Source: a virus. From it: 64,000 nt of DNA. Made by a program: the position numbers and the translations under genes. Below the pieces are notes generated by a model that saw nothing but the letters and a program-made list of their open reading frames with translations, searched no databases and was not told the DNA's origin. Below are positions 1,743-53,465 of this stretch, in pieces (the first letter of the stretch is position 1; the number at the start of each line of letters is the position of its first letter). The stretch lies in the IMG/VR virus record IMGVR_UViG_3300034022_000629, positions 1 through 64,000 of that record, one strand, 5' to 3'.

Positions 1743-1945
1743 AGTTTCTTTTATATATAAATATCAGGTTATTTGGTTAAGATTTCTTACGATCCAAACC
1801 TTTCTTTTGATTCAATTTACGGGTGGCTTTAGCCATTTTCTCCCTATTTTTTTGTTTCTTTTCACTTTTTGTCATATTCTTAAATATAAGAAAAATAAAA
1901 AAGGGACACCTTTCGATGCCCCTTTGGTTTTCAGGGATTTATATC

Positions 1946-2890
1946 TTAATTAATTCCTTTAAATATTTGTGGAACTGTACCATAAACTGGTAACTTACCA
2001 TCCCATTTATTAATGAACTCCAATTGTAATAGCATTGGTGTAATGGTCTTTTGTTTTAAACTATTAGCCTCAGCTTCAGCCTTAGCGGATGTTAACATTG
2101 CCTCAGCGTTACCTTGTGCGGTTGCCACTTTAATCTTAGCTTCAGCCTCAGCTTGTTTAACTTTATTTTCAGCCATCAACGCCCCTTGAACGGCATTGTT
2201 CTTTGCTTCAATTGCTCTCTTAAATGTTTCAGGGTAAACTAAGTTAGATGTCAATTGATTAATGATGAAACCTTCAGGTAATAAACTAGCATCCAATGTT
2301 GCTCTTACTTTTGTTTCAAACAATTGACGGTTACTGATTAGTTCCTCAGCCGTATAAAAGTTAGCGGTCATTCTAAATGCGTCATAAATGTTTGTCTTTA
2401 AAAACCCATCTTCAATCTCACCTAAACTTCTACGGTATTTGGCAAAAATCGATGGAACCTTATCTCTCTTTACAGAATAGTTAATGATTGGTGAAATGTG
2501 AAATTCACTACCATCTTTTGAGTTAACAATAAATGCGTTCTCACCACTATATTCTTTATGTTGAATGTAAGTTGGGAACTCATAAATGTTATGTGTAATT
2601 GGATTAAAAAATACCATACCTGTTACTTCAGTAACATCACTAACCCCTTTGTTATCACCATAAAGGTTTACCTTAACACCTACGTGTCCAGCGTCAATTC
2701 TCTCACAAGAGAAAAATAAAAATACTAATGTAAAAAATAACCCTACTCCAATTAAAATACTTCTCATAATTTGTTTTTGTTTTTGTTTTTGTTCTTGATT
2801 AAATTCTTCTTCTAAACGATTTAATTGTTCGTCTGTTCTTCTATTTCCGTAAGCATCAAAACGATTATCATACCTATTAAATGCTTCCAT
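1946..2890 (-). CDS. SPFH/band-7 (prohibitin/HflK-like) membrane protein
   Basis: N-terminal TM segment, an SPFH core (VGVKVNLYG...), and a C-terminal Ala/Glu/Lys-rich coiled coil (AEAEAKIKVATAQGNAEA). An in-frame (QK)n stretch near the N-terminus comes from a hexanucleotide repeat. Confidence 0.6.
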   Translation of the reverse strand: MEAFNRYDNRFDAYGNRRTDEQLNRLEEEFNQEQKQKQKQIMRSILIGVGLFFTLVFLFFSCERIDAGHVGVKVNLYGDNKGVSDVTEVTGMVFFNPITHNIYEFPTYIQHKEYSGENAFIVNSKDGSEFHISPIINYSVKRDKVPSIFAKYRRSLGEIEDGFLKTNIYDAFRMTANFYTAEELISNRQLFETKVRATLDASLLPEGFIINQLTSNLVYPETFKRAIEAKNNAVQGALMAENKVKQAEAEAKIKVATAQGNAEAMLTSAKAEAEANSLKQKTITPMLLQLEFINKWDGKLPVYGTVPQIFKGIN

Positions 2891-2891
2891 A

Positions 2892-3257
2892 TTATTTATT
2901 TTTTGGCTTCTTTCTTGTTTTCACAAATGGTTCCTCACTTTTAGTTTTGGAAGCTTGTTTGGGATTTCTTTTCTTTTTAATTATTTCTTCCTTGGGTACA
3001 TAATCGTATTCAGTTTCTCCTGGTGGGATTACCTCATCTTTATTTGAAAAAAACTCAAACAGATCTTTCCATTGAATGAAATGATAAACAAACAATACTG
3101 AGAATATACCAACTAGTGCCGCCAAAATATTGGTGTACGAGTCTGCGGTAGTTAATCCTGGAAATACGATATATTCGAACACGATTACGACTCCGAATAT
3201 TACTCCAACAACAGCCAAGACACTTTTGTCGAATACTTTTTTTAATGTTTCTTTCAT
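2892..3257 (-). CDS. small membrane protein with a basic C-terminal tail
   Basis: Two predicted TM helices followed by a K/R-rich tail; adjacent to, and probably co-transcribed with, the SPFH gene. Confidence 0.4.
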   Translation of the reverse strand: MKETLKKVFDKSVLAVVGVIFGVVIVFEYIVFPGLTTADSYTNILAALVGIFSVLFVYHFIQWKDLFEFFSNKDEVIPPGETEYDYVPKEEIIKKKRNPKQASKTKSEEPFVKTRKKPKNK

Positions 3258-3386
3258 TTGTTTTAAATTTTACCCCATCCGGATTTTTCCATACAAATTA
3301 AACGATATTGTTCAACTGTTCTAAGGAAGTTTATTAATTTTTTCATAGTATTAAAATATAAATAAAATTTTTTAAATAAAAAAATA

Positions 3387-4043
3387 TTATCCAACAATTC
3401 CTTTCATATCATCTGTGTGATGATCTAACGGTCCTAACTCTGAACCGATTACAACTTTTTTCATCGGATTAATAATCTCACGATGTAAATCATAAGGTCT
3501 AAATTCTGGATGACCATCCATACCTACATCCATTCTTCTACCATTGGTAATCTTTTGTGCGTGTGGTAAGTGACAATGTCCGTGTAGCATTATTCTACCT
3601 TTACGTAAACCATTCCAAGATGATATTGGATAGTGCATACACTCCAACGTTTCACCCATATAGTTTACTTGTAGGAACCATTGAACACTATTGAATAAAC
3701 TTTGACAGTTCTCTCTGTTCCTATCAATGTGATGATCGTGGTTACCTAAGATTAAATGAATCTCTTGACATATGATTCTATCTCTTAACAATTGAATGTT
3801 TTCAAATCCACCGAATGACCAATCCCCAAAATGAATCAACACATCTTCTTGACCAACAACCTCATTGATGTTGTTAACAATGGTATCATTCATCTTATCT
3901 AACGTTGGGAAATCCCTTGTTTGATTTTCCGGAATATCTCCATTAGCTAATCTCCAATTAGTTGTTCCACGACATATGTTTCCGTGACTGAAATGGGTGT
4001 CTCCCGTTACCCAAACTTTTCTACTATCTTCTATCTTTATCAT
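3387..4043 (-). CDS. calcineurin-like metallophosphoesterase
   Basis: Motifs GDTHFSHG, HFGDWSFGG, LGNHDHH and HGHCH match metallophosphoesterase signature blocks. Confidence 0.65.
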   Translation of the reverse strand: MIKIEDSRKVWVTGDTHFSHGNICRGTTNWRLANGDIPENQTRDFPTLDKMNDTIVNNINEVVGQEDVLIHFGDWSFGGFENIQLLRDRIICQEIHLILGNHDHHIDRNRENCQSLFNSVQWFLQVNYMGETLECMHYPISSWNGLRKGRIMLHGHCHLPHAQKITNGRRMDVGMDGHPEFRPYDLHREIINPMKKVVIGSELGPLDHHTDDMKGIVG

Positions 4044-4456
4044 CCTCTAAAAAATTTAAAATCTTTTTTCTTATCCGGTCTTCTATTTGGTGGTTCTATT
4101 CTTTCTATTGCAGACCTAATTGCCGTTTCTCTTTCTGATTGTGCTTGAGTAATTCGTGATATTGGTGGTGGAGGTGGAATGGTTCTACCAAAACTTGTCA
4201 TTCGTTGTCTGTTAATTTCTGACATTGTTCTAAACCATCCTCTATGTCTCTCGTTACTTTCATTTTCTTTCTTTCGTTTTTCTTTTATGATTTTTTCCTC
4301 ATCATCTCCAATTAATAACGCCAATATTGGACCCAATATTATTGCACCTATTATTGTATCTAAACCTAATGTCCAACGTTTACTGTGATAGACCATCACA
4401 TATGTTGCGGATATCATCCAAAAAAATACTAAAACAAATATTAACTCGTTACTCAT
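4040..4456 (-). CDS. membrane protein with a Pro-rich segment
   Basis: Two TM helices, then a charged KEKRKKENE stretch and a PPPPPI run. Confidence 0.35.
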   Translation of the reverse strand: MSNELIFVLVFFWMISATYVMVYHSKRWTLGLDTIIGAIILGPILALLIGDDEEKIIKEKRKKENESNERHRGWFRTMSEINRQRMTSFGRTIPPPPPISRITQAQSERETAIRSAIERIEPPNRRPDKKKDFKFFRG

Positions 4457-4457
4457 A

Positions 4458-4976
4458 TTAACTAAATTCAGTTGATGTACTTACTCGAAGTCCATCGATT
4501 ATTAAATCATCGTACTTGGGGTCATCGAAAAACGAACCAACACCTTTAGCTCTTTCCTTTTTTCGATATTCACGATTAACAACTAACCCATCAGGTTCAC
4601 CCCATTCAAGTGCCATAGTAATAAAATCTTCAATACTCCACTCGTCACCATATTCATCAACCACCCTACCTGAACGAATGAAAGACAATAGTTCTTCTTT
4701 ATTAGAATAATATTTGTCCTTATGAAAATTCCAACAGAACTTCCAACCACCGCTTCGTTTACCTAAATGAATATTAGTTCCATCAATGAAGATACCCCAC
4801 GGACTTTCTCTACCCCATTGATTATCAATAGGTTCATCAAACCCACACTCAATGTTACTTGGTGATAAATCTAAGTTGGCAATACGTTCTAGTAATTTGA
4901 ATTTTCTTTCATCCATCTCGGATGCTTGGGGTATGCGGTAGTAATTTGTTCCCATAATGTTAGTAAGTTTGTACAA
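4458..4976 (-). CDS. hypothetical protein; the track start is TTG, the real start is probably the internal ATG at 4955
   Basis: 172-aa ORF. A TATCACA-containing motif lies upstream at 4993-5017. Confidence 0.4.
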   Translation of the reverse strand: MYKLTNIMGTNYYRIPQASEMDERKFKLLERIANLDLSPSNIECGFDEPIDNQWGRESPWGIFIDGTNIHLGKRSGGWKFCWNFHKDKYYSNKEELLSFIRSGRVVDEYGDEWSIEDFITMALEWGEPDGLVVNREYRKKERAKGVGSFFDDPKYDDLIIDGLRVSTSTEFS

Positions 4977-5018
4977 ATGTATATATTTTTTCTGATATCA
5001 CAAAATATATCACAAAAA

Positions 5019-5042
5019 AATCCCCAAATTTCTTTGGGGATT
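5019..5042 (-). terminator. intrinsic terminator (aatcccca / tggggatt) followed by a T-run on the minus strand
   Basis: Perfect 8-bp stem. On the minus strand it is followed by TTTTTTTGTGAT. It lies downstream of the minus-strand gene at 5093-6325. Confidence 0.45.
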
Positions 5043-5092: not shown

Positions 5093-6325
5093 TTATTTTT
5101 TTATTTCTTTTAAGATATCTAAAGAAATGTTAACAACTGTTTCGTTAATTTTCTCAACATCAGATCTTCTAACGTTTGCATATTTTAATGCTGTTTTAGG
5201 TGAGATACCTTCTATCTTCGTTTTAAAATCACTGATAGCTTCTCTTAATCCTTGAGATACCGCAAAAACTGACATAATTGATTTGTCACCTGTAAATTCA
5301 ATATCTTCTAATGGAACCATTTTTTCTACTTTAATTACACCATCATCCAAATACCCACCATCTTGTAGAGTTAGTGGTTGCATTTTACCATTTGGGATTC
5401 TATATTCGTCTGGTCTTTTTCTACCAAACTTGTTTTTCATACTAATAGTCCAAATAAATTGGTCGTTTTGTTTAACACCCGTAATTTCAAAATCCATTTT
5501 CATTGAAACATCTAAGTTCAATTCTGAATAACCACTTTTATCTAATTGGAATACATCAGTTTTACCTAAGTATCTTTTGTCGCTCTTTTTAGTTTCTTCC
5601 CATTTACTATATTTTTGATTGAATTGTCTTGCCAAATATGATGTATTGTTCTGTTCAGTGTCTCTACCACCAATTCTAGCAACAACCGACTTTAAGAATG
5701 ATTGAGCATTTTCATATGTGTTGAAACTATGAACTCTATATTTTATTTCGTCATTATCCCAAACATCGTTATGTGTATCTTCAAATTTAAGGTCGTTAAC
5801 TATGATTGCTGGAATACTTCTTTTAGAAAGTATCTCATTAAATTGTTTACCTTTATCTGATTCAAGACCTAACTCATCTCTAAGGATAGGATTGAATAGT
5901 CTTCTAATATTTTCTTGTACGTCGTAATTTTCTCCACTTGCTTGGTAAGGTCTACGTTCGATATTGTTATCATCACCTTCGTCATCTGGTAAATTACTAT
6001 AGACTCTTTTAGTGTTTCTATGTGGATTGTATTTTGGACAAGTGTCACTTGACCACTTAACTCCACCATATTGTTGTTTTAGTTTTTCAACTAAATCTGG
6101 ATGACTATTAACAAACTCTTGAATATCACAAGTAAATATCACATTTACTCTACCACCTTGAGGGTTGTTAGGGTCGATTAACATATCGTGACCAATAAGA
6201 TTACCTTCGTCATCTTTAATTGGTCTACTAATAGCATCTGCTTTATCCCATATACGTCCCATTTCATCTATTTCGGTTGAACTTTCTGAAATGATAGACA
6301 TTAATTTTTCTTTCGATATTTCCAT
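5093..6325 (-). CDS. hypothetical protein (410 aa), possibly virion-associated
   Basis: Long ORF with no recognisable catalytic motif. A promoter-like motif lies upstream at 6341-6355. Confidence 0.45.
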   Translation of the reverse strand: MEISKEKLMSIISESSTEIDEMGRIWDKADAISRPIKDDEGNLIGHDMLIDPNNPQGGRVNVIFTCDIQEFVNSHPDLVEKLKQQYGGVKWSSDTCPKYNPHRNTKRVYSNLPDDEGDDNNIERRPYQASGENYDVQENIRRLFNPILRDELGLESDKGKQFNEILSKRSIPAIIVNDLKFEDTHNDVWDNDEIKYRVHSFNTYENAQSFLKSVVARIGGRDTEQNNTSYLARQFNQKYSKWEETKKSDKRYLGKTDVFQLDKSGYSELNLDVSMKMDFEITGVKQNDQFIWTISMKNKFGRKRPDEYRIPNGKMQPLTLQDGGYLDDGVIKVEKMVPLEDIEFTGDKSIMSVFAVSQGLREAISDFKTKIEGISPKTALKYANVRRSDVEKINETVVNISLDILKEIKK

Positions 6326-6340: not shown

Positions 6341-6355
6341 TATATAAATATCACA
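6341..6355 (-). promoter_or_regulatory. recurrent intergenic motif TATATAAATATCACA (minus-strand sense TGTGATATTTATATA), a candidate phage promoter
   Basis: Same or near-identical motif 5-30 nt upstream of the starts of minus-strand genes at 1754-1767, 6341-6355, 7949-7962, 13173-13189, 52055-52068 and 53415-53430. A split version lies at 9341-9367. Confidence 0.4.
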
Positions 6356-6387
6356 GAATCACACTTATTGTGTTTTGTGTGATAATA

Positions 6388-7944
6388 TTATGCCATTGTA
6401 GATGAAGATGATATCATATTAGCAACTTTGGCAACTTTGGGTCCACCTTGAGCAATTAGACTGTTACCACTATTTGATCTTCTATCTATTACAATTTGTA
6501 ATAACGACTTAGGGTCTTTATTACCAGATGCAACCGCTTCGTTAATTGTTCTTGCAAATTTTTGGAACCATCCCTCACCATTCCAAGTTGCGTATCCAAA
6601 ATTAAACGTTAAAGCTGCATCTTTTGATATAATATCTGCAGCTTCAGGTGACAAATGTGATTTACTAAATTTAATAAAGAATGGTTTCATAATGTCACCA
6701 GCCAATTTTCTTAATTTTCTATCCAACGACGGATTATCTTTCAACATATAACCGTGTTTCCATTTACTTCTAGCATCTTCGGCATCAATTAAAGCCCAAA
6801 ATTCCTGACCCGCAGGTCCAGTGGCTTCAGTACCTCCCGCCTTTCTATCCATACCAAACATTGTTTCACCAGATGCACCAAATCTACCATCTTTTACTCT
6901 ACCATCTTGTAACATATCTGGGTGATAATATCCACCCTCTAAATTATCTATGATAAGATTAACTATACCCTCCCAATCGTTAACTGTGACGTTACCACCA
7001 CTACCGTTAGCTTTATTGATATATGATGAAAGTTCTTCTGATTTAACACCTCTTTCTTTAAGAAGTTCGATTAATTTATTTAACATTGCAGGAGTCGCTA
7101 CTTTCAAATCTGTACTACCCGCACCAGCCTTACCTCCAGTTGCATTTGTTAATCCAGAAGCTAAATCACTTAAATTACCTGAAGATACACCTACGTGAAC
7201 GTGAGATGGAATACCATCTATTTGCATTATCTTACCAATAAGGTCACCTTCTTTAACTGAATCACCAACACTTACCGATGAGTCTATATGTGTATAGAAA
7301 ATATCTGGTTTACCGTCGTTACTTTTTACAGACACTTGGTCTCCGTATATTTTTTTAACTCCACTTTTAATTAATCCACCACTTGCCTTTCTAACTTTAT
7401 TTACAACACCACTAGTGATTGAGTAAACCTCAGTTCCAACTGGACCTGTAACATCCCAAGCGTTTCCACTTTGCCAATCAGATGCACTATGTGTACCTTG
7501 ACCAGGTTTACCTATTAATCCACCACCTTGTGAAACCAACTTAGACGCCTCATTGATTGATGTTTTACCATCATTTAATTTCTCTTGTGTGAATTTAGCA
7601 ACCGCAGCACCAGTCTCAGGACCAAAAAGACCATCAACACCATACCTTGGTAATTCATAACCTAATAAAATTAAACCTATTTGCATAGACTCAACTTCTT
7701 TTTGAAATTGATATGAACCTTTTTCTTGTTGGGTTATCCCGTTACCGCTTGCGGCAGTTTCAAGAGTTTTATAAAACGCCTCAACGTCGGGAGTAATAGC
7801 GTCAGCCTTCTTATCGTCGTGTTTATTGGTCTTAATACCCAAACCACCCATAATTTTATCCCAAAGTTCCCCCTCATTAACTACTTTTTTACCATAGTTA
7901 AGTCGGTGCATTCTTTCTAACTGTTCTATTAAATTCTTCTTCAT
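6388..7944 (-). CDS. multi-domain peptidoglycan hydrolase (PG-binding domain, M23 peptidase, GH108-like/PG_binding_3-like C-terminus)
   Basis: - LGYELPRYGVDGLFGPETGAAV matches PG_binding_1.
- The M23 core carries H...D and HVHVG metal-ligand motifs (YTHIDSS...GIPSHVHVG).
- The C-terminal EGGYYHPDM...GETMFGMD resembles the GH108 N-terminal motif. Confidence 0.65.
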   Translation of the reverse strand: MKKNLIEQLERMHRLNYGKKVVNEGELWDKIMGGLGIKTNKHDDKKADAITPDVEAFYKTLETAASGNGITQQEKGSYQFQKEVESMQIGLILLGYELPRYGVDGLFGPETGAAVAKFTQEKLNDGKTSINEASKLVSQGGGLIGKPGQGTHSASDWQSGNAWDVTGPVGTEVYSITSGVVNKVRKASGGLIKSGVKKIYGDQVSVKSNDGKPDIFYTHIDSSVSVGDSVKEGDLIGKIMQIDGIPSHVHVGVSSGNLSDLASGLTNATGGKAGAGSTDLKVATPAMLNKLIELLKERGVKSEELSSYINKANGSGGNVTVNDWEGIVNLIIDNLEGGYYHPDMLQDGRVKDGRFGASGETMFGMDRKAGGTEATGPAGQEFWALIDAEDARSKWKHGYMLKDNPSLDRKLRKLAGDIMKPFFIKFSKSHLSPEAADIISKDAALTFNFGYATWNGEGWFQKFARTINEAVASGNKDPKSLLQIVIDRRSNSGNSLIAQGGPKVAKVANMISSSSTMA

Positions 7945-7974
7945 ATTAATATAAATATCACAATTTTAGTTCAA

Positions 7975-9319: not shown

Positions 9320-9373
9320 TTCTTCCTTTTTATGTTGTAAATATAAATAATATTTTCGAATATCACAAATTAA

Positions 9374-13162: not shown

Positions 13163-13185
13163 AGTATTTGTTTATATGATAAATA

Positions 13186-13431
13186 TCAGTCAATCAGTTC
13201 ATCTGTTATAATGTTATGATCATTTAAGATTTCGTGTATCTTTTCATATACCAATTCCAAAGCATCATACTTGTCAATTTCTTTACCTTCCATTGACCAT
13301 TCTAAACCTTTTTTAGTGTTATGTACAATATCCCATAACGCCATCGCCATATCTAAAGATTTAATTGCTCTTTTATGTGCCATAACATCGTCAGGATCAC
13401 TTAAGTTGTACTCTATTGTCGCTTTCGCCAT
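13186..13431 (-). CDS. hypothetical protein
   Basis: 81-aa ORF. Confidence 0.4.
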   Translation of the reverse strand: MAKATIEYNLSDPDDVMAHKRAIKSLDMAMALWDIVHNTKKGLEWSMEGKEIDKYDALELVYEKIHEILNDHNIITDELID

Positions 13432-15668: not shown

Positions 15669-15771
15669 ACGTTTGTAAGTTTAAATTGTTTCGATACAAA
15701 TGTAATAATAATTTCGGAAATACGAAAAAAAATTAAAATATTTTTCGGAATATGATATAACTAATTGATTA

Positions 15772-19097: not shown

Positions 19098-19146
19098 ATA
19101 TAGTAAAAAAAGTTAGGATATACGTATTTATATAAAAAAATATATT

Positions 19147-20056: not shown

Positions 20057-20171
20057 CGGACCTCCCTAACTCTTGTTGTAATTGTTGTATTCTTAGTTTA
20101 TCCCTTTGGGTTGAATCTTTCTTTGATTTTAATTCTAAAATCTCTTTAACGATTTCTTCTTTACTCATAAT

Positions 20172-22390: not shown

Positions 22391-22497
22391 AATTATACCT
22401 CTTTCCATTGATTTTTTAAATTATTTTTGTTAACTTTTATAAAATATAAGTAATCAATAACAATAAAACAAACTATTTATAATTAAACATTAATACT

Positions 22498-22677: not shown

Positions 22678-22678
22678 T

Positions 22679-22718: not shown

Positions 22719-22750
22719 ACCTTATCTGTATATAAAATTTTATATATTAT

Positions 22751-40475: not shown

Positions 40476-40484
40476 ATTCTATAA

Positions 40485-41450: not shown

Positions 41451-41454
41451 ATTA

Positions 41455-42426: not shown

Positions 42427-42427
42427 A

Positions 42428-45400
42428 TTACAGTCCTAATTTACCTTTTAATTCTGTTATAATCAAGTTCTGTTCGTTTATTTCTTGCTTTAATTCTTTA
42501 ACTGCCTCAATAAGATATGCATTTATTCTACCGTAAGAAACTGAATCAACTTCACCATCTTTATTTTTAAGAACAACTAATGGTGTTACATCATACATTT
42601 CTTCCGCAATCACACCCGCCTCAATATTACCACTATCTTTTCTTGTGTATGTTACACCTCTCATTTGAAGTATCTTATCTAAACCGTATTTAATTGTTTC
42701 AATATTTGTTTTATATCGAATGGATGAATTTTCAGTAAAAATACCACCAACCGTTATACTACCTTTGGTATAGAAGTTACCAGTTGCTGAACTCATTTCA
42801 GCAACAATGGATGGTTGACCTGTTGATGTTCCCGCTTCCCAAGTCCAACCATAACCGCTAGAGTTTTCAATGAAACTACGAAGTGCCCACGATGTTACAA
42901 AATTACCAGCTGCAGGTGAGGTAATATTACCCGTTGGTCCAGTACTGGCAACGTTTACTGCTGCCATATATTGACACCACGCCGTATAACCACTTGAATA
43001 CCAATTAATACCGTGAGTTGTATTGGCACTTCTTTGTATAAAATGACTTCTAGCATATAAATCAACAAATGTTGGTGAGTTACCCGTACCAACACTTTGG
43101 TTAATCGTATATGCTGTTATGTTACCTGCAGTACCTGCAGTTGAAGCATATGACACAGATTGTGAACCAATGTTACCCGTGGTAATTGCATCTGTTATTC
43201 CATAACCACTTATTGTTGTTGGTTTTGATGAAACGTTTGCGAAAGATATACCTGTGATGTATCCGTTTGGATTCGTTGCGTTATATGGTGTATAACCTAA
43301 CGCTGTTGTAACGTTACCACTGGTTATACTCGAAATATATCCCGATGGGTTAGTTGCATTGTATGGGGTAAATCCAAGTGCCGTTGTTACATTACCACTC
43401 GTTATACTTGAAATGTAACCAGATGGGTTCGTTGCGTTGTATGGAGTGTAACCTAATGCGGTTGTAACGTTGCCGCTAGTTATACCTGTTAAATAAGCAC
43501 TATTATTTGTGAACTGTGAAATGTTCATTGAACTTAATGCTCCCGCTGTCGCTACCGTTTGTGAACCAATATTACCACTATGTATAAACTCTCTCCAAGT
43601 TTGCCATCCACTATCATTTCTTCTTCTAAAATACGCAACGTCCGAAGCGTAATCAAACGCTAATTGTGTTCTTCTATCAAAGTTATTACCAATATTAACA
43701 GTTCTTATATTTGGTGATGATAACGGTGGTGTACCTGAAGGTACTGGGTCAAATGTTGTAAAACTTTCTCCCCAATCAGAATCTATATTACCAGTTATTG
43801 TACCATTAGATTTTACAGAATCAGTAATTCCATATCCACTAAGTGTTGTTGGTTTTGATGAAACGTTAGCAAATGATATACCTGTAATATAACCCGATGG
43901 GTTAGTTGCATTATACGGAGTAAATCCTAAAGCTGTTGTTACATTACCACTGGTTATACTTGAGATATACCCTGATGGATTGGTTGCGTTGTATGGAGTG
44001 TAACCTAATGCGGTTGTAACGTTACCACTAGTTATACTTGAAATGTAACCAGATGGGTTAGTTGCGTTGTATGGTGTAAATCCTAAAGCCGTTGTTACGT
44101 TACCGCTCGTTATACCTGTTAAATAAGCACTGTTATTTGTGAACTGTGAAATGTTCATTGATGTCAACGCGCCCGCCGTAGTTGCTGTTGTTGCATTACC
44201 ACTTAATGCGCCTGTGAACGTTGTTGCACTTACTGTTGAGAATGTTGGTGTACTAGTTGTTAATACTGCTTGGTTTATAACTGAACCATATCCTATTGTT
44301 GAACTTAAGGTAATTTGTGCACTACCCGATACCAAACCAGACGGTATACTACCAATTGATCCGAATGTTATTTGAGACGAGCCCGACACTATACCAGATG
44401 GAATACTCGATAAACTACCATATGTAATTTGACTAGATCCAGATACAACACCATCCGCATTCATTTTACTTTTTACACCACTTGTAAATGTTGCTGATGT
44501 TGTGTCAAGACTAACTGTTCTTGTTGCGGATATGTCACCGCCACCACTTAAACCATTACCTGCAGTAATTGATACCGCTGTGTGATCGATATGTCTATTT
44601 GTATCATACCCTGTTGTTGAGTTATGTGCTATTTGTGATGAACCAGAAACTATTGTTGTTCCTGTTGAAACAATTGTACCATTAATAACGGTGTTAGATA
44701 AAACAGTAACGGTTGTACCGTCATCTGTTATGTTTGAATCATTTAAGTGATCTCCTCCGGCAGATTTTGCAATTCTACCACTTGTTAATGTTAATTCACT
44801 TCCTAATGAACCAGAGCTACGAGGTCCAGATAATATAACACCACCACCATACGAAGCCTCACTTGAGTTTTGATAAACCCACCTATTATTAACTGAGTCC
44901 CATAATAAAGATCCTGTCGCGATTCCAACCGAACCCGAATCGTGAACTTCTAATCCACCAAATCTAGAACCTGGACTCGCTGTGTTTACTGTAATAATAT
45001 TATCCTCAACTCTTAATTGAGATGATGTCACATATGTTATAGATGAGGAACCAAAAACTGTTAAGTTTTCAGTAATTATTACCGAACCACTAATTGTTTG
45101 TAAGCCTTTGAATGTGTTAGAACCGGTGGTTGCGTAACTACCACTTTTACCTTCAATCGAATCTAACCTATTGCTTTGATTTAATGTTGTGGTAGCAATT
45201 GAAGAACTTAATGATCCAATACTAGAACTTAATCCGCTTGTTGTTGTTGCAACTGATGATGATAAACTCCCAATACTAGAACTTAATCCACTTGTTGTTG
45301 TTGCAACACTTGAAGATAAACTTCCAATACTACTTGTTAAAGAAGAACTTAATCCTAATGTTGTAGTTGCAACTGAAGAAGATAAACTTCCAATTGAACT

Positions 45401-46525
45401 AGACAATGAGGAACTTAATCCTGATGTAGTTGTTGCAACGCTTGAACTTAAACTTCCAATGGAGGAACTTAATCCACTAGTTGTTGTTTCGACACTAGAA
45501 CTTAACGAACCAATACTAGAACTCAACCCACTTGTTGTGGTTGCAACAGAGCTAGATAATGAACCTATACTTGTGGATACACTTGAGCTGAATGTTGAAT
45601 ATCCTGTGGTACCTGTTATTAAAACTTGATCACTTCCAGATATAACTGTTTCCGTGTTAAGTTTATTTTTAATTGTGGTATCAATAGAACTAGTAAATGT
45701 ATTTAAACTACTTGTTGATGTTTGTAGTGTTCCAATTATCGTGTTATTAGAACCTGTGTAGGTATTCAATGAACCAATAGACCCCGTCACTCCTTCGATA
45801 GAAGTCAACCTACCATTCTGAGTTGTTTCTACTGTATTGTTTGAACTTGTAAAAGAATTAAAATCTGTTCTTATTGAAGAACTATCCGATTCAAGTGATG
45901 TCAATCTACCTGAAGCACTCGATGTGAATGTATTTAAAGAACCTGTCGATGTTTGTAAAGTTCCGATTACCGTATTATTACTACCAGTGTAGGTGTTTAA
46001 CAAACTAACAGAACCTGTAACTCCCTCAATAGATGTTAATCTACTATTTTGTGTGGTGTTAGTTGAATCATTTGAACTTGTATATGATTGAAATGTTGTT
46101 TCATCCAACTTTCCTGTACCAACAGGGACACCATTTAAAGTTATTGATCCCGAAATGGTAAGTGCTCCCGTAATTTCTGTATTTGAATTAACCCTTAATC
46201 CATTCGAATTTGAAATGGATGCTGTGGCAACCCCATCAGCAATTTGAGTTAAATTAAGACCCGTAACCCCACTTGCTGGAATATTATATAGATTTGTACC
46301 GTCACCCTTGAAGGAACCAGTGAAGGATCCTGTAGTGTACGATGAGGTGAATTGGTGAAAACTTGAGGTTAAGGTGTATTTTGGGGCTTCGGATGCGGTT
46401 AACGCATTCGTGGATGTTCCACTAACCGTCGCATTTATGTTTCCTAATACGGTTAAGTCTCCTGAGATTTCAGCTGAACTCGATACCGATAGCGATCCAG
46501 ATATGTGTGCGTCAAATATATTCAT
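42428..46525 (-). CDS. large tail fibre protein with Ser/Thr-rich tandem repeats and a C-terminal peptidase-S74 intramolecular chaperone domain
   Basis: - 1365 aa.
- Repeats (SSSIGSLSSSVATTTSGL)n and (GYTPYNATNPSGYISSITSGNVTTAL)n.
- The C-terminus (...ENSSIRYKTNIETIKYGLDKILQMRGVTYTRKD...) matches the autoproteolytic chaperone domain of tail spikes and endosialidases, spanning about 42428-42823. Confidence 0.7.
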   Translation of the reverse strand: MNIFDAHISGSLSVSSSAEISGDLTVLGNINATVSGTSTNALTASEAPKYTLTSSFHQFTSSYTTGSFTGSFKGDGTNLYNIPASGVTGLNLTQIADGVATASISNSNGLRVNSNTEITGALTISGSITLNGVPVGTGKLDETTFQSYTSSNDSTNTTQNSRLTSIEGVTGSVSLLNTYTGSNNTVIGTLQTSTGSLNTFTSSASGRLTSLESDSSSIRTDFNSFTSSNNTVETTQNGRLTSIEGVTGSIGSLNTYTGSNNTIIGTLQTSTSSLNTFTSSIDTTIKNKLNTETVISGSDQVLITGTTGYSTFSSSVSTSIGSLSSSVATTTSGLSSSIGSLSSSVETTTSGLSSSIGSLSSSVATTTSGLSSSLSSSIGSLSSSVATTTLGLSSSLTSSIGSLSSSVATTTSGLSSSIGSLSSSVATTTSGLSSSIGSLSSSIATTTLNQSNRLDSIEGKSGSYATTGSNTFKGLQTISGSVIITENLTVFGSSSITYVTSSQLRVEDNIITVNTASPGSRFGGLEVHDSGSVGIATGSLLWDSVNNRWVYQNSSEASYGGGVILSGPRSSGSLGSELTLTSGRIAKSAGGDHLNDSNITDDGTTVTVLSNTVINGTIVSTGTTIVSGSSQIAHNSTTGYDTNRHIDHTAVSITAGNGLSGGGDISATRTVSLDTTSATFTSGVKSKMNADGVVSGSSQITYGSLSSIPSGIVSGSSQITFGSIGSIPSGLVSGSAQITLSSTIGYGSVINQAVLTTSTPTFSTVSATTFTGALSGNATTATTAGALTSMNISQFTNNSAYLTGITSGNVTTALGFTPYNATNPSGYISSITSGNVTTALGYTPYNATNPSGYISSITSGNVTTALGFTPYNATNPSGYITGISFANVSSKPTTLSGYGITDSVKSNGTITGNIDSDWGESFTTFDPVPSGTPPLSSPNIRTVNIGNNFDRRTQLAFDYASDVAYFRRRNDSGWQTWREFIHSGNIGSQTVATAGALSSMNISQFTNNSAYLTGITSGNVTTALGYTPYNATNPSGYISSITSGNVTTALGFTPYNATNPSGYISSITSGNVTTALGYTPYNATNPNGYITGISFANVSSKPTTISGYGITDAITTGNIGSQSVSYASTAGTAGNITAYTINQSVGTGNSPTFVDLYARSHFIQRSANTTHGINWYSSGYTAWCQYMAAVNVASTGPTGNITSPAAGNFVTSWALRSFIENSSGYGWTWEAGTSTGQPSIVAEMSSATGNFYTKGSITVGGIFTENSSIRYKTNIETIKYGLDKILQMRGVTYTRKDSGNIEAGVIAEEMYDVTPLVVLKNKDGEVDSVSYGRINAYLIEAVKELKQEINEQNLIITELKGKLGL
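43195..44176. repeat. segmental duplication (copies at about 43195-43549 and 43810-44176), each holding three 78-nt tandem repeats encoding GYTPYNATNPSGYISSITSGNVTTAL
   Basis: Near-identical nucleotide blocks, e.g. ggttgtaacgttaccact(g/a)gttatact(c/t)gaaat..., at both loci. Confidence 0.65.
45184..45590. repeat. about 7.5 tandem copies of a 54-60-nt unit encoding SSSIGSLSSSVATTTSGL(SS) inside the tail fibre gene
   Basis: Visible in the protein and as the repetitive antisense shadow ORF at 45189-45629 (ELNPLVVVAT repeats). Confidence 0.7.
45679..46045. repeat. two copies of a roughly 228-nt unit encoding RLTSIEGVTGS(V/I)..LNTYTGSNNT(V/I)IGTLQTST.SLNTFTSS
   Basis: Duplicated protein segment with matching nucleotide blocks at 45700-45830 and 45900-46030. 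Confidence 0.55.
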
Positions 46526-46579
46526 CTAAATGTGTGTTATACAATAGATAAATACTTTATATTTTATATTGTGACTTAA

Positions 46580-48415: not shown

Positions 48416-49456
48416 CTATATCAATGTTTTATCTGTATTATCTATAAACTCATATAGGTTATGAAAAAGGTTTTGATTTTTCCATATTCTATTTAACTCT
48501 TTTTTAAATAAATGATGTTCAGGGTGTTCATCGTCCCATACTTGCTTTAATTTAAATTCACCTTCAGAAAATGTTCCCCAATTAGTTATTTTACCAAAGA
48601 ACACATTTACTTTCTCACCAAAAATGGAATACATCAAGTTATAAAATTCTTCCATTTCCATATAGTTAGAATCTTGAACAACAAAGGATGTTTTTACATT
48701 TATAGGTAACGTACTTATGAATTTTAAATTATCTATTAGATTATCCCATTTACCACCTAATCTAGTTTTATTTTCATACGTGTCTTTTGTTCCCGCATCT
48801 ATACTGATTTCACAAGTGTGAACATATTTGTGTATGTTAGACATACTATCCCACATTTCTTTATTCCACATTGATGCGTTAGTGTGTAAGTGTATTGATT
48901 TTAGATTTGGATATTTTTTGGGGTTGAAGTTTCTAAGATAATTCCTAAATCCAACTGATACAAATGGATCCCCGGAACCGGTGATGTATAATGTTTTTAC
49001 GTATTGTGAAAAGTAAGTGTCAATGTCTTCAATTGTTTTCTCTACTCGTTTTATACCTTTACTGTCTTCAACAATTAAATCTACCCTACAAGAAGGACAT
49101 TTGTAATTACAAGTCCTATCAAAATTCATCACTATATTATCTGGTGTATTATTCTTTACTATTGGGTCAACAATGGTTGAATTTGATTTTAGTGTTACTG
49201 GTCCAGATGTTACACCGTAGTTTACTAATTTACTTAAATAAGGACAAAGCTCTTTACTACAATACTTAAACGAACCATCTAATATTGAATTTCTAATGTT
49301 AATTATTGGTTCACTGTTGTAAACATCTTTTAACGGTATTTCAGATAATTCCACTTTGTTTGGTAACCAGGATGGGCAACACACAAAACAAACATTATTA
49401 TGTATTTCTAATGAATTAAATGGCACATTACACGTGTAATTTTTTAAATCAACCAT
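48416..49456 (-). CDS. radical SAM enzyme with an N-terminal Cys-rich extension
   Basis: DRTCNYKCPSC is the CX3CX2C motif, sitting about 115 aa into the protein. Upstream of it lies YTCNVPF...NNVCFVCCPSW. Confidence 0.55.
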   Translation of the reverse strand: MVDLKNYTCNVPFNSLEIHNNVCFVCCPSWLPNKVELSEIPLKDVYNSEPIINIRNSILDGSFKYCSKELCPYLSKLVNYGVTSGPVTLKSNSTIVDPIVKNNTPDNIVMNFDRTCNYKCPSCRVDLIVEDSKGIKRVEKTIEDIDTYFSQYVKTLYITGSGDPFVSVGFRNYLRNFNPKKYPNLKSIHLHTNASMWNKEMWDSMSNIHKYVHTCEISIDAGTKDTYENKTRLGGKWDNLIDNLKFISTLPINVKTSFVVQDSNYMEMEEFYNLMYSIFGEKVNVFFGKITNWGTFSEGEFKLKQVWDDEHPEHHLFKKELNRIWKNQNLFHNLYEFIDNTDKTLI

Positions 49457-49459
49457 TGT

Positions 49460-50185
49460 TTAAATTAATTGATTTCTTGGTTCGAATCTTTTTTCAAAGT
49501 TATCGAACACCCATTTTTTTAACTTATCATCTTTTACGATGTTGTTTTTTATTGGGTTGCTTTTATTTATTCTACCTACCTTGAAATCAATTTCATATTT
49601 GTTACACATAAACTCTTCAAATTTATCGATTTCATCGATATTAAATTCATAGGTACATTTATTATTATCGACCCAATATGATTGAGATAGTAACAGTATA
49701 AGTGGATTAAAAGTATAGTCTATATTTTTAGGTATATTTTTCACAAATTTATATATTATTGATTTGTTAAACTCCCTCATTTTAATTATTTCTTCATATT
49801 TCGTTAAGTCGGTTTTCATTTCCCCAATCGAATAAATTGAATCTACATAATCATTAGTAAAATTATTATATATAAAATCGTTATCAACATCCTCCCACTT
49901 TACGGACATTTCATTACCATTAATTTCGTACATATACCAACTATGTTGTAGTGCACTTATCCACCTATCAAAATAATTTCTTTTAATAACTACAGTTTCC
50001 ATTTTTCCAAAATTTACATATAGGTCAGATAACTTAACGTGTATATGTTTTGGATACTCTATATCTACTCCAAAATTGTGATGATTAATTGTAAGTGAAG
50101 AATTAAGAATTGAATTTTCGATTGACGTACTAGCACACCTCGGAACAGATACCCAAATTAAATTGTTATTTATACATATGGACAT
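49460..50185 (-). CDS. sulfotransferase-like protein (second paralogue)
   Basis: VSVPRCASTSI and VIKRNYFDRWIS parallel the two motifs of the 47855-48415 protein. Confidence 0.35.
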   Translation of the reverse strand: MSICINNNLIWVSVPRCASTSIENSILNSSLTINHHNFGVDIEYPKHIHVKLSDLYVNFGKMETVVIKRNYFDRWISALQHSWYMYEINGNEMSVKWEDVDNDFIYNNFTNDYVDSIYSIGEMKTDLTKYEEIIKMREFNKSIIYKFVKNIPKNIDYTFNPLILLLSQSYWVDNNKCTYEFNIDEIDKFEEFMCNKYEIDFKVGRINKSNPIKNNIVKDDKLKKWVFDNFEKRFEPRNQLI

Positions 50186-50191
50186 AATAAA

Positions 50192-50473
50192 CTAGATAAA
50201 TGTTTTATTAGTTTTTTCCTCCATTTTATATTTTTTATCGATTACTTCCCATTTTCCCAATGGGCAGGGATTAAATTCCAGACTAAAAATTTTTTTGGAT
50301 ATTGGACAACCACATTCACCACATATTGTGGCAAGTTTTAGTTTTTTAGTAATTACTTTTTTTGATGGACATACATCACATACCCCACCTCTTTCGATTG
50401 ATTTGTTCAATTGATTTTCATTGGGGTTATAACTAACAACCCACGCATCAATTATCTCCTTAATGTTAATCAT
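50192..50473 (-). CDS. small Cys-rich (Zn-ribbon-like) protein
   Basis: CDVCPS...CGECGCP...CPLGKW, i.e. multiple CxxC pairs. Confidence 0.35.
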   Translation of the reverse strand: MINIKEIIDAWVVSYNPNENQLNKSIERGGVCDVCPSKKVITKKLKLATICGECGCPISKKIFSLEFNPCPLGKWEVIDKKYKMEEKTNKTFI

Positions 50474-50565
50474 TATTAACTGTTATCTTGTACTATTAGA
50501 TTTCCTATTGTAGTAACTATAGAATCTGTAAGTTGTTTTTCTTGATTTGTCATATTTTTAATTTT

Positions 50566-52038
50566 TTAAGCGCAGTAATTACAAATACCATTATTACAAC
50601 ATTGTCCCTTATTACAACTACCTTGTCCACCATATGGTGTGCCGAAGCACTCGAAGTTATTATGTTCAACAGCCGCAAAGTAAGATACATCTGAAATGGT
50701 TGGGTTACCTGTCGATGTTAAAAATAGATGAGCTCTTTCTACACCAATTGTCCATCCTGAAAATTCTTGATCCACAATATTAATTGATTGAACGGTTTTT
50801 TCTACGATTTGTACGTTTTCATATTCTGATGTGTCTATAAGTAAAACAACATTTCCAGGAATAAAATCCATTATTTTAACAAATTTTATTTCATTATTTT
50901 CGTAAATTAAATAACTCGAACTAATAGTGTCAAACCAGTTTGTTCCATCGGTAAATGTTATTTCGGCAATCTCCACAGTAATATCTATTCTGTTTTTAGT
51001 GGTAACTTTATTTGTACTATAAATTACACCATCTAGAAACGTTTGCATATCGATTTGATAGTTCGCTAAAACGTTTATGGCGTCGATATTGTCGGCATTA
51101 GGGATGTCAATGGTTCTAAGAAGGTCTCCCACCTGTAAATCTAATCCACTTTTTGTTGTACCGTCGGCCATAATAACATAGTCGTCATCCAATAATTTTG
51201 GTTGATTTAATGTAAAGTCTGTGGTATAATAAATCTTTCTGTAAAGTCTATCAATTTCAAAAGTTTCTTCATTATAGATAATATTATTTGTTAATTTTTG
51301 AATTGATATATCAGTGTAAGACCCTATATGAATTGATTCTAAATTTGGGGGGAATAACATACTTATTTTTCTAATCTTAGTTACCCTATTAGAATGAACT
51401 TTTGATTCGTTAAAATAATACGGCATTAAAAAATAATCTTTAGTAACGTTTTGTAAAACGAGGTCCAATTCTGTTTGATTTGTCACCTTATAAAACTTAG
51501 GATAGACTTCCTTATTATAAGCAGGTTTTACGGCTTTTAAAATAAAATTAGGATGTATCCCATTGTCTTGGATGTTTGTTATATTATTTATTAGAACATC
51601 TTCTTCATTTAAATAAGCGAATTCCGAACCAAATTCACTATCCTTAATCAAATTTAAATATTCAATTTTATTTGCACAATAAGAACTATCCAATATAGCC
51701 GTGGTGTCAAATGAGGTCCTCACAATTAAATGTGTTGTACTATCTTCAATATATGGAATTGTTATTGAAGTTGGAGTGGTACCAATTGTTTCAAATTCCA
51801 AAGATAAATTTGTTGCTACGTTTTGAATTTGTTCTTTAATTTTAACGTTCGCCCCTATATATGTTATCTTCGTAAACAAATTTGAGGTGACAAAATTCTG
51901 AAAATCTGTCATATCAAATACTTCATTATCATTTTCTATTTTTTGTATGGGATATCCGATATTCGTATTCATCTCAATAGGTCTTAAATCACCCGCTGAA
52001 TCGTAGACAAAATCTAAACCAACTATTACTGCTCTCAT
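50566..52038 (-). CDS. hypothetical protein with a Cys-rich C-terminal knot
   Basis: 490 aa ending GSCNKGQCCNNGICNYCA. A promoter-like motif lies upstream at 52055-52068. Confidence 0.4.
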   Translation of the reverse strand: MRAVIVGLDFVYDSAGDLRPIEMNTNIGYPIQKIENDNEVFDMTDFQNFVTSNLFTKITYIGANVKIKEQIQNVATNLSLEFETIGTTPTSITIPYIEDSTTHLIVRTSFDTTAILDSSYCANKIEYLNLIKDSEFGSEFAYLNEEDVLINNITNIQDNGIHPNFILKAVKPAYNKEVYPKFYKVTNQTELDLVLQNVTKDYFLMPYYFNESKVHSNRVTKIRKISMLFPPNLESIHIGSYTDISIQKLTNNIIYNEETFEIDRLYRKIYYTTDFTLNQPKLLDDDYVIMADGTTKSGLDLQVGDLLRTIDIPNADNIDAINVLANYQIDMQTFLDGVIYSTNKVTTKNRIDITVEIAEITFTDGTNWFDTISSSYLIYENNEIKFVKIMDFIPGNVVLLIDTSEYENVQIVEKTVQSINIVDQEFSGWTIGVERAHLFLTSTGNPTISDVSYFAAVEHNNFECFGTPYGGQGSCNKGQCCNNGICNYCA

Positions 52039-52065
52039 ATTATTTTCTTATTTCTATATAAATAT

Positions 52066-52281
52066 CTATTTTTTATCTTTTAATCCGTATTTAATCCATC
52101 TATACCATATCCTCTCGTGAAGATAATATTGAACGGGTTTATAGACCAATTCAGCAACCCCAAACGCGGCGCCAACCTTAATAGAACCACTTATCCACCA
52201 CATTAAACCAAATCCAATTAAAGTACTTATAATTCGATATGAGATGGTTTTAGCTATGTGTCTCTTACGCTCTACAATCAT
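52066..52281 (-). CDS. DUF2061-like small membrane protein
   Basis: 71 aa, 2 TM, with a basic tail. Confidence 0.35.
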   Translation of the reverse strand: MIVERKRHIAKTISYRIISTLIGFGLMWWISGSIKVGAAFGVAELVYKPVQYYLHERIWYRWIKYGLKDKK

Positions 52282-52661
52282 TACCCCTTAGTTTGGTCAT
52301 ATTTTATGGTTCCGTCAGGACTCATATGTCCAGTTCTAATTGCGGTTCCACTAATCACCGCAACATCTGCAGGTGGTTCGTGATAGATTACATCGTAACC
52401 CACTCCTCTACCATAGTTGATACTTTCAATATCTGGAATGATAGATAGTAAAATCTTATCAAAATTTTCATTAAAGAATGGTTCCTGTATTAACATTTGA
52501 AACACCTCTTGAGCGGTTTTTGGGTTATTCTCATCGACTTGAACGTCTCTGATTGCCACCCAAACATTCTTACCTTGGGATAGTTGTTGGTTAATTAACC
52601 ATTCGTGACCTTTGTGCCAATTCTGCCAACGGCCGACGTACATTGCGTACTTCTTACTCAT
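52281..52661 (-). CDS. minimal nucleotidyltransferase (cytidylyltransferase / HxGH superfamily)
   Basis: YVGRWQNWHKGHEWL carries the H-x-G-H motif, and the C-terminal ISGTAIRTG resembles the ISST/RTxGISTT motif; 126 aa. Overlaps the APS kinase gene by 8 nt. Confidence 0.45.
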   Translation of the reverse strand: MSKKYAMYVGRWQNWHKGHEWLINQQLSQGKNVWVAIRDVQVDENNPKTAQEVFQMLIQEPFFNENFDKILLSIIPDIESINYGRGVGYDVIYHEPPADVAVISGTAIRTGHMSPDGTIKYDQTKG

Positions 52662-53115
52662 ATGATTTTAATTTTAATTTAAGTTCCTGAACAGTTTCAA
52701 ATTCAGGTCTATTAGTGGTATCTATATCTATAAAAAATTCGGTAGGGGGTTGGTAATTTTCAACGTGAAATTGTTCCCTACCTCTGATATCAGTTGTATG
52801 TACATATACCTCAACCAAATCCTCGCCCATTGTGGATTTAAATGTATCTCTTTGATCTTTATAAGGTGAAACTAATGAGACAATTGCAACGTCTCCCTTT
52901 TTGTGAATAAATTTGGCAATATTTTGTGCCAATTCAATATTTTTACGTCTTCCTTGCTCGGAATAGTCTTTGTTTTCGAATATCTCTCTAATGTCGTCAC
53001 CGTCCACAACTACCCCTTTGTTTGGGTACGACGCTTGTAACCAACCAGCTAATGTTGTTTTTCCTGAACCAGGTTGACCCGTTAACCATATAATCATATG
53101 GAAAATATAACGCAA
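52654..53115 (-). CDS. cysC: adenylylsulfate (APS) kinase
   Basis: IWLTGQPGSGKTTLA is the P-loop. VVDGDDIRE, RRKNIELAQNIAKF, VIVSLVSPY and the C-terminal ENYQPP parallel the canonical CysC blocks. Confidence 0.7.
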   Translation of the reverse strand: MRYIFHMIIWLTGQPGSGKTTLAGWLQASYPNKGVVVDGDDIREIFENKDYSEQGRRKNIELAQNIAKFIHKKGDVAIVSLVSPYKDQRDTFKSTMGEDLVEVYVHTTDIRGREQFHVENYQPPTEFFIDIDTTNRPEFETVQELKLKLKSYE

Positions 53116-53179
53116 AAAAATTGTAAAATCAATGGATGGTTACACAATTTTACAATTAATTACTTTGAAATAGCGACTA

Positions 53180-53401
53180 TTAAAGTTCTTCGGATACTGG
53201 TTCTAACTCTGAGTAATGATAACTAACACCATCTACAACTAACGCTAATGTGTCTTTAAACTCATTATATGCTTGAAATGAGATGTTTTCTTTAATAAAT
53301 GTTAAAGCCTCTTCTTTAGTTGCGAAGGTATGATTAGCAATTTCTAATAATTCATCTTCACCGGCTGCATTTATGGTTAAACCGTTTATTTTGTAGTTCA
53401 T
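53180..53401 (-). CDS. small hypothetical protein
   Basis: 73 aa. A promoter-like motif lies at 53415-53430. Confidence 0.35.
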   Translation of the reverse strand: MNYKINGLTINAAGEDELLEIANHTFATKEEALTFIKENISFQAYNEFKDTLALVVDGVSYHYSELEPVSEEL

Positions 53402-53465
53402 ATTCTTTCTTTTTTATATAAATATCACAGTTATTAATAAAGTTTGTACTCGAATCCGTATTCAT

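Follow-up and report, generated by a model that had tools for sequence, protein, structure and literature searches.

A recurrent, oriented TATTTAT box upstream of phage genes as a predicted core promoter element

Results

The window and its box sites

We analyzed a 64,000 nt stretch of viral DNA (positions 1 to 64,000 of IMG/VR record IMGVR_UViG_3300034022_000629, hereafter the window) in which a short A/T-rich box recurs directly upstream of genes. The window has a GC content of 32% and a high coding density, with 4.8% intergenic DNA according to our own open reading frame (ORF) calls. Minus-strand genes occupy 1-21977 and 32190-64000, plus-strand genes 22025-32177. The recognisable genes are phage-like or auxiliary and encode tail fibres, an M23 peptidase, DNA methylases and ThyA as well as a glycosyltransferase cluster, a tryptophan halogenase, radical-SAM enzymes and a carbamoyltransferase. 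Neither tRNAs nor Rfam matches were found in the window. A-rich sequence with no Shine-Dalgarno site precedes the start codons, and TTTG-N19-21-TAnnTTTG is present in several intergenic regions. These two features suggest that the uncultured phage to which the window belongs probably infects a member of the Bacteroidota.

A first-pass annotation of the window had listed six copies of one 14-16-mer at a distance of 5-30 nt upstream of minus-strand genes. All six exist on the minus strand directly upstream of ATG codons (Table 1). Sequence identity over the whole length had been overstated: the sites share a core of 9-11 nt, and the complete 15-mer TGTGATATTTATATA is exact at two of them only (6341 and 53415), with one mismatch at 7948 and two at 1754. 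The site at 52055 shares the 11-mer GATATTTATAT, the one at 13173 only TGATATTTAT. The gap between the 15-mer and the ATG is 3-16 nt, so that the distance given earlier applies to most sites but not to the box at 7948, which is 3 nt away from the start codon.

Enrichment, orientation and conservation of the core

GATATTTATAT occurs five times as an exact copy in the window, always on the minus strand and always in intergenic DNA. For the 8-mer TATTTATA we counted 10 sense copies (7 intergenic) and 5 antisense copies (1 intergenic; binomial P ~2e-8). Intergenic DNA was also counted alone and oriented by gene direction, which controls for AT-richness. Here TATTTATA is the joint top 8-mer with 7 sense vs 1 antisense copies, AT-only 8-mers averaging 1.4 copies, and ATATTTAT is found 6 times in sense and never in antisense orientation. 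The single intergenic “antisense” copy of TATTTATA precedes a conserved plus-strand gene of 42 aa; the box therefore turns with the gene it serves. A position weight matrix (PWM) built from 22 sites of the cultured phage immuto alone (see below) places the six listed sites at ranks 1-6 in the window, and each of them is intergenic and sense-oriented. The recurrence of the box is real. A scan of viral contigs with the exact 15-mer gave only scattered chance matches among the matches listed.

Orthologues of the 410-aa gene downstream of the 6341 box were drawn from IMG/VR and metagenomes, ranging from 97% down to 38% protein identity. In all 21 orthologues collected, down to 38% identity, [AG]TATTTATAT[AT]AA is located ~20 nt before the ATG. 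The upstream flank and sometimes even the upstream gene differ, while TATTTAT is invariant. The same core precedes orthologues of the peptidase, 74-aa, 42-aa, tail-fibre and several other genes, and nine divergent peptidase orthologues keep ATATTTAT-N5/6-ATG with a variable spacer sequence. At the 1754 site the box is kept in six relatives (L006, L007, L009, L138, L142 and L147) with different flanks. The variant at 13173 is kept as CTGATATTTATAATG in L006, and the core at 52055 is identical in L162 and L163, the protein of which is 88% identical. L163 also keeps the tail-fibre box AAGTATTTATCTA despite a different upstream gene. In the distant relatives L010 and L011 both the 42-aa ORF (MAKAKGSS...YRGQGR; MAKAKGSSTSQKVSFGKKGKGKYKKNFGPKAQKPKRYRGQGR) and its upstream box are conserved; this box is the sole strong intergenic plus-strand PWM match in the window. 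The TGTG extension of the 15-mer was considered as part of the element and rejected. Because it is lost in relatives, we regard TATTTAT rather than TGTGATATTTATATA as the functional core, and we limit the conserved part of the 15-mer to (A)TATTTAT(A/T) and the A/T-rich sequence after it.

Table 1. Box sites, host-type promoter-like sequences and a hairpin in the window (PWM, score against the immuto matrix)
Feature	Position	Strand	Context
Box CCTGATATTTATATA	1754..1768	-	11 nt upstream of ATG, 74-aa gene (1518-1742); top PWM score 17.4
Box TGTGATATTTATATA	6341..6355	-	15 nt upstream of ATG, hypothetical 410-aa gene (5093-6325)
Box TGTGATATTTATATT	7948..7962	-	3 nt upstream of ATG, 518-aa Peptidase_M23 / peptidoglycan-hydrolase gene (6388-7944)
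Variant box CTGATATTTATCATATA	13173..13189	-	upstream of NifU-like 131-aa gene (12767-13162); PWM 12.8
Box AGATATTTATATA	52055..52068	-	16 nt upstream of hypothetical 490-aa gene (50566-52038)
Box TGTGATATTTATATA	53415..53429	-	13 nt upstream of 73-aa gene (53180-53401)
Box TACGTATTTATATAAAAAA, newly added	19121..19139	+	upstream of very basic 42-aa ORF (19147-19275, +); PWM 11.0
Variant box AAGTATTTATCTA, newly added (46548)	46544..46558	-	22 nt upstream of 1365-aa tail-fibre gene (42428-46525)
Variant box ACTATTTATAATT, newly added (22474)	22470..22485	+	upstream of 59-aa gene (22498-22677)
Weak variant (T)ATATTTAA, newly added	1880..1888	-	4 nt upstream of ATG, conserved 32-aa basic ORF (1777-1875)
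Hairpin ATCACAC/GTGTGAT, without T-run	6358..6383	-	directly after peptidase stop codon, directly before 6341 box
Host-type promoter-like TTTG-N20-TATATTTA(C)	9341..9367	-	upstream of 193-aa HAD-like gene
Host-type promoter TTTG(TGATAT)-N19-TACATTTG	4974..5014	-	downstream of terminator 5019-5042
Host-type -7 box TATATTTG, early class	1439..1446	-	others at 15697-15704, 19095-19102

The box in cultured phages and in controls

The genome of Flavobacterium phage vB_FspM_immuto_2-6A (immuto), in which nearly all genes are on one strand, was examined as a whole (160 kb). It contains 31 sense vs 4 antisense copies of ATATTTAT, and 22 of the 31 are located in the 5.1% of the genome that is non-coding (P ~5e-22). 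Box sites precede the genes for terminase, tail sheath, tail tube, baseplate hub, tail spike and a virion protein, in addition to those for a fibre-like protein, PhoH, GroES and others. Upstream of the 22 boxes 45 nt (positions -45 to -4) carry no information and no second element. Microcystis phage Mel-JY01 (190 kb), the portal of which is 48% identical to that of immuto, has 18 sense vs 3 antisense copies of ATATTTAT[AG]T. These sites lie 30-45 nt upstream of the terminase, portal, tail tube and other genes, with a GGAG ribosome-binding site between box and ATG. Its recorded host is a cyanobacterium and its genes carry Shine-Dalgarno sites, which indicates a host outside the Bacteroidota; the use of the box in such a phage argues for a phage-encoded determinant.

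Two controls behaved differently. In Flavobacterium siphophage 11b, of similar GC content, 8 copies are sense and 12 antisense and no start codon is preceded by one, and the huge phage LR756508 (484 kb), a relative by its portal, shows no enrichment of the box. Since both are negative, the box belongs to certain phage lineages and not to AT-rich DNA or to Flavobacterium phages in general. Capsid proteins of the immuto type form at least 8,000 metagenome clusters, and the best 120 listed are 74-94% identical to that of immuto.

Closeness of the window itself to cultured phages is limited to the ThyA segment, with 85% nucleotide identity to immuto. A tblastn search of 50,697 phage records found no homologues of the 410-aa and a 464-aa window protein. 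In freshwater metagenomes such homologues occur frequently, with contigs reaching 320-333 kb, and the window may come from a family of jumbo phages without cultured representative. Relatives L009 and L149 correspond to contigs Ga0620986_00525 (320,920 bp) and Ga0209358_10000005 (333,612 bp), and one relative cluster was reported on a 636-kb contig.

Distance to the start codon and terminators

Across the phages the distance between box and ATG varies from 2-12 nt up to ~100 nt, which rules out a role in ribosome binding. Where the box is 2-12 nt away from the ATG there is also no room for a separate core promoter or -10 element downstream of it. At 48 non-redundant sites from the window and its relatives the distance from TATTTAT to the ATG is bimodal: 3-6 nt at 17 sites, 14-23 nt at 27 and 7-13 nt at only 2. 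For -10 elements and T4 late promoters the transcription start site is located ~5-7 nt after the element. A start site fixed at ~5-7 nt after the box, combined with avoidance of leaders of 1-7 nt, would be expected to give such a distribution. Because of this bimodal spacing some transcripts could be leaderless, for which we see about even chances.

A hairpin with a T-run is found within 70 nt upstream of 8 of the 22 immuto boxes vs 16 of 199 box-less genes (Fisher P = 7e-4). Terminators end 8-27 nt upstream of some boxes. At the immuto terminase gene, for example, 14 nt separate the end of the terminator from the box, and another 18 nt separate the box from the ATG. Two strong terminators (1900-1925 and 1470-1495) flank the 74-aa gene of the window together with its box, and the weak variant at 1880 directly follows the first of these; its equivalent in L147 reads GTATTTAT-TTAC-ATG. 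Behind this variant, between terminator and 1754 box, lies the 32-aa basic ORF (MTKSEKKQKNREKMAKATRKLNQKKGLDRKKS); L007, L009, L138 and L147 retain it, and L006 has lost it by deletion. An apparent conserved hairpin upstream of the 1754 box turned out to be coding sequence of this ORF and was discarded. The hairpin preceding the 6341 box shows a compensatory change in L007 and L136, where both arms are altered (ATTACAC/GTGTAAT).

A separate host-type promoter class

The window contains a second kind of promoter-like sequence. Positions 9341-9367, formerly described as a split form of the box, are not a split box: they have the host-type arrangement given in Table 1, and L138 keeps TTG...TATATTTAC at the equivalent position. 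The recurring TATCACA in the gap at 4993-5017 is real but likewise not the box. The two TGTGATAT copies (4995-5002 and 5007-5014) sit in the -33 region of the host-type promoter TTTG-N19-TACATTTG. Altogether TA[TC]ATTTGTA with a -33 TTTG is present in the window at 1446, 4981, 15704 and 19102.

In immuto, TTG-N-TATATTTAGGTA occurs 25 times, in a cluster before small genes at 61-76 kb. In this region (~60.9-76.2 kb; L154-L156) the copies are near-identical, AAAAGTTG-N-TAT(A/C)TTTAG(G/A)TATCAATAATTAAAAC, each is followed by a small ORF, and the -7 box ends in TTTAG vs TTTG in the textbook form. The host-type class (TTG...TAnnTTTG/A) probably serves separate, early genes. A host-like class and a second class before virion genes in one genome correspond to a classic early/late layout. 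Both the box and the -7 elements of the early class (TATATTTGTAC in the window, TATATTTAGGTA in immuto) contain ATATTTA.

Comparison with known promoter systems

Late promoters of T4 have the sequence TATAAATA spanning -13 to -6 and are read by gp55 together with gp33 and the gp45 clamp. The box resembles them as a single A/T-only element of 8 bp near -10 without a -35 partner: the upstream sequence is uninformative in immuto, and in the relatives the upstream flanks vary freely. Further likenesses are the very short intergenic spacers before capsid, tail and lysis genes, the coexistence of host-type early promoters, and the T4-type portal, capsid, sheath and tube proteins of immuto and Mel-JY01. 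Late genes follow the box in these two phages and, with the tail fibre and the M23 peptidase, in the window, their timing being deduced from function. If T4 late geometry applies, TATTTATN-N5-ATG would put +1 on the A of the ATG. Sequence and reader differ. The coding-strand reading TATTTATA is the reverse complement of the T4 box except for two central positions, and sense TATAAATA is the minority orientation both in the window (5 vs 10) and in immuto (15 vs 30). The choice of the coding-strand reading over the T4 consensus on the opposite strand in the first-pass annotation thus holds, the box being strictly oriented and flipping with the gene. A profile of 120 gp55 sequences detected no gp55, and immuto, unlike T4, replicates with a family A polymerase, DnaB and DnaG and has no annotated clamp.

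The sigmaA promoters of Bacteroidetes reportedly consist of -33 TTTG and -7 TAnnTTTG. As in these, the box is an A/T-rich element ending in TTT(A/G) near the start site, but A/T replaces the G after TTT and the TA at positions 1-2 is not conserved. Aligned on TTT, the box reads nnTATTTA(T). TTTG or TTG 19-21 nt upstream is absent at the six window sites as well as at the immuto sites, and true sigmaA-type promoters exist separately in the window (four) and in immuto (25 copies). The box does not correspond to an extended -10 element (TGnTATAAT) either, as TATTTA has no T at position 6; TG precedes ATATTTAT at 5 of 6 window sites and is not conserved in relatives or immuto. A scan for sigma-70 promoters gave no enrichment. 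The box therefore differs from the standard sigma70 and Bacteroidetes sigmaA consensus sequences as had been claimed, apart from the ATATTTA that it has in common with the early -7 elements.

Single-element middle and late promoters read by phage sigma factors include those of phiEco32 gp36 and of SPO1 gp33-gp34, the latter with a -10 GATATT. Here too a phage-specific -10-like element defines a temporal class, and the window version of the box contains GATATT. The G of GATATT is, in contrast, not conserved in relatives, and the families listed for the immuto hypothetical proteins include no sigma-70-family domain. Phage-encoded sigma factors and single-element middle/late promoters are treated in a published account (PMC4331800). 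The promoters of non-virion RNA polymerases from the jumbo phages phiKZ and AR9 are described in another as short A/T-rich motifs adjacent to the start site and independent of host sigma (PMC5312081). The box is similarly short, A/T-rich and close to the start site, and relatives of the window are on contigs of 320-333 kb, but no RNA-polymerase genes were seen in the sequences scanned. In the paper on the crAss-like phage phi14:2 the middle promoter is different, being tripartite and sigma-70-like. By comparison with these systems the box most likely represents a class of phage late promoters with a consensus of its own, similar to T4 late promoters in architecture and different in sequence. 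In the searchable literature on the motif, on late promoters of Flavobacterium phages and on Mel-JY01 we found no description of the motif, which is not proof of novelty.

Search for the factor reading the box

Searches for a phage sigma factor or gp55-like gene, proposed in the first-pass annotation as something to look for, found none in the sequences covered. Neither PHROGs, applied to 40 window proteins, nor the Pfam tables of window genes and relatives revealed a sigma factor or an RNA polymerase. Six-frame ORFs of the window, its relatives, immuto and Mel-JY01 gave no match with E <0.2 in an hmmsearch with a profile of 120 gp55 homologues; this profile derives from T-even-like sequences, which limits its sensitivity, and of the window genome it covers 64 kb, possibly out of ~320 kb. 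T4 gp55 gave no match by tblastn. Pfam analysis of 85 immuto hypothetical proteins yielded no Sigma70 domain among the 25 of 29 matched families listed, and no RNA-polymerase domain was recognised in nine large uncharacterised proteins, seven of immuto and two of Mel-JY01. RNA-polymerase genes, whether multisubunit or single-subunit, were not seen in the window, the fetched flanks of relatives and the annotated products of immuto. Small proteins common to immuto and Mel-JY01 are one of 151/147 aa and two zinc ribbons of 191/212 aa and 77/81 aa. None of them had an informative PHROG match, and hhalign of the 151/147-aa and 191/212-aa pairs against gp55 gave probabilities below 1%.

Discussion

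We consider it probable that the box is a phage-specific core promoter. It would act as the -10-like core of a class of promoters from which late and structural genes are transcribed. The element, (A)TATTTAT(A/T) followed by A/T-rich and then A-rich sequence, would act alone, without a -33/-35 partner and in one orientation, and transcription would start a few bases downstream. At about a third of the sites, those with the ATG 3-6 nt after TATTTAT, transcription would begin at or beside the A of the ATG and yield a leaderless mRNA; the remaining sites would give a short leader of ~8-17 nt. The likely reader would be either host core RNA polymerase with a phage specificity factor or the sigmaA holoenzyme with a phage co-factor. 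This is the logic of T4 late promoters with gp55, and the gene of the presumed reader is not in this window. Whether the box is read by a phage-encoded factor is a question on which we are evenly divided. The box may have arisen from an early -7 element and may be recognised by a region-2-like factor or by sigmaA plus a phage co-factor. Orientation, conservation and position before late genes support the earlier proposal of a promoter for phage-directed transcription. The motif itself, its orientation, conservation and position and the kinds of gene behind it are observed directly, whereas we infer promoter activity, the position of the start site, late timing and the identity of the polymerase from sequence.

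Several points speak against this interpretation. “Late” is deduced from gene function in immuto and Mel-JY01, and the only recognisably late genes behind a box in the window are those for the tail fibre and the M23 peptidase; the other box-preceded window genes have no recognised function or are, like NifU, metabolic. The link between the window family and immuto or Mel-JY01 is indirect, consisting of the glycosyltransferase cluster, ThyA, a 69-aa gp23-like fragment and the box. Gene starts were taken from a simple ORF caller, so some short spacings may reflect a wrong start codon. A specificity factor was not found with the gp55 profile, Pfam Sigma70 or RNA-polymerase-domain searches, and the ATATTTA common to box and early -7 element would permit recognition by host sigmaA.

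The last two points also form the case for a weak host sigmaA promoter, in which a -7 variant without -33 is used by the unmodified host holoenzyme and no phage factor is involved. We find this unlikely. The conserved TA that opens TAnnTTTG aligns with variable bases of the box, the -33 TTG is absent, and the immuto boxes are segregated from the early promoter cluster. Furthermore Mel-JY01, with its Shine-Dalgarno genes and, by record, cyanobacterial host, uses the same box, which is absent before genes of Flavobacterium phage 11b. Slightly less likely still is a DNA site bound by a phage regulator that activates or represses late genes, the core promoter itself being located elsewhere. Operators can indeed be short conserved boxes near start codons, and immuto and Mel-JY01 have small uncharacterised zinc-ribbon proteins in common. 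The box is, however, asymmetric and strictly oriented, no other conserved element that could be the core promoter is found nearby, and distances of 2-12 nt to the ATG and of 8-27 nt from terminators leave no space for a -10 element, a start site and a leader.

That the box acts at the level of mRNA, as a translation enhancer, a repressor site comparable to those of T4 RegA or a signal for RNA processing or stability in the 5' leader, appears very improbable to us. It is A/U-rich and near start codons, and A/U-rich leaders matter in Bacteroidota, which do not use Shine-Dalgarno sites. But the distance to the ATG ranges from 2 to ~100 nt. In Mel-JY01 an ordinary GGAG stands between box and ATG, a terminator ending 8-27 nt upstream leaves the box region as the sole place for a promoter, and Rfam has no match in the window. 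Chance recurrence of an AT-rich word in AT-rich intergenic DNA can practically be dismissed. In its favour, the GC content is 32%, and with 2 mismatches allowed the 15-mer is found only slightly more often than in shuffled sequence (4 observed, 1.2 expected). Against this stand the joint top rank among oriented intergenic 8-mers (7 vs 1), the immuto-only matrix that puts the six sites first, conservation across relatives, and a bias that is repeated in two other genomes and absent in two controls.

A phage-specific core promoter remains our preferred explanation. A further-reaching proposal is more doubtful and is made tentatively: the box could belong to an undescribed late-transcription system of abundant aquatic phages with T4-type capsids and hosts of different phyla (Flavobacterium and, by record, Microcystis), with a factor lacking detectable similarity to sigma-70 or gp55 and with about a third of the promoters leaderless, their 5' end being the AUG.

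Other genes of the window

The 42-aa ORF is located on the strand opposite to all its neighbours and is too short for ordinary gene callers; its basic product could be a DNA-condensing or internal virion protein. For the 410-aa product an AlphaFold model was obtained with a mean predicted local distance difference test (pLDDT) score of 68.5. Foldseek of this model against the PDB gave no match with E below 0.06, and the product could not be assigned as a virion protein on this basis.

Part of ThyA (20158-20764) is 84-85% identical in nucleotide sequence to immuto, the phages being otherwise barely related, and the 102-aa protein encoded next to it (19748-20056) has 64% identity with gp220 of immuto. 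ThyA and the 102-aa gene look like a recently exchanged module. Several genes of the glycosyltransferase and sugar-modification cluster at 22751-32177 (+) are common to immuto and Mel-JY01 with 27-46% protein identity. The counterparts are at 48985-59988 in immuto, where more genes are matched, vs 84024-89690 in Mel-JY01. In immuto the cluster opens with a box-preceded small gene, a homologue of window 22751-22948. The cluster may be a module for virion glycosylation. Within it, a 69-aa ORF at 25809-26018 (+) matches part of the major capsid protein of T4-type phages (Pfam PF07068 Gp23). Its identity to the immuto and Mel-JY01 capsid proteins is 44-48% over ~50 aa, and the ORF may represent either a fragment of a capsid protein or a protein that mimics a substrate of glycosylation.

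Four tail-fibre-like genes follow each other at 38889-46525 (-). The 1365-aa tail-fibre protein carries a Peptidase_S74 intramolecular chaperone domain. Two fibre-like proteins of 321 and 323 aa have a near-identical C-terminal peptide (...APRSLSS[GA]SPMWS...), by which we recognise them as paralogues. Genes for tailoring enzymes at 35919-37436, 48416-49456, 56158-57837 and 61838-63100 (all -) constitute a set that is unusually rich for a phage. It comprises a tryptophan halogenase, two radical-SAM enzymes, a NodU/CmcH-type carbamoyltransferase, 2OG-Fe(II) oxygenase-like proteins and an APS-kinase-like protein.

Significance

The phage groups concerned are abundant, with at least 8,000 capsid clusters of the immuto type and a window family present on contigs of up to 333 kb. 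If the rule holds that late genes are preceded by TATTTAT without upstream partner and early genes by TTG...TAnnTTTG/A, gene timing could be read from their genomes. The same rule would help to find small late genes missing from annotations, such as the basic ORFs of 42 and 32 aa. The box also offers a defined DNA bait for a factor that redirects RNA polymerase, and the spacing pattern predicts leaderless translation in phages of Bacteroidota.

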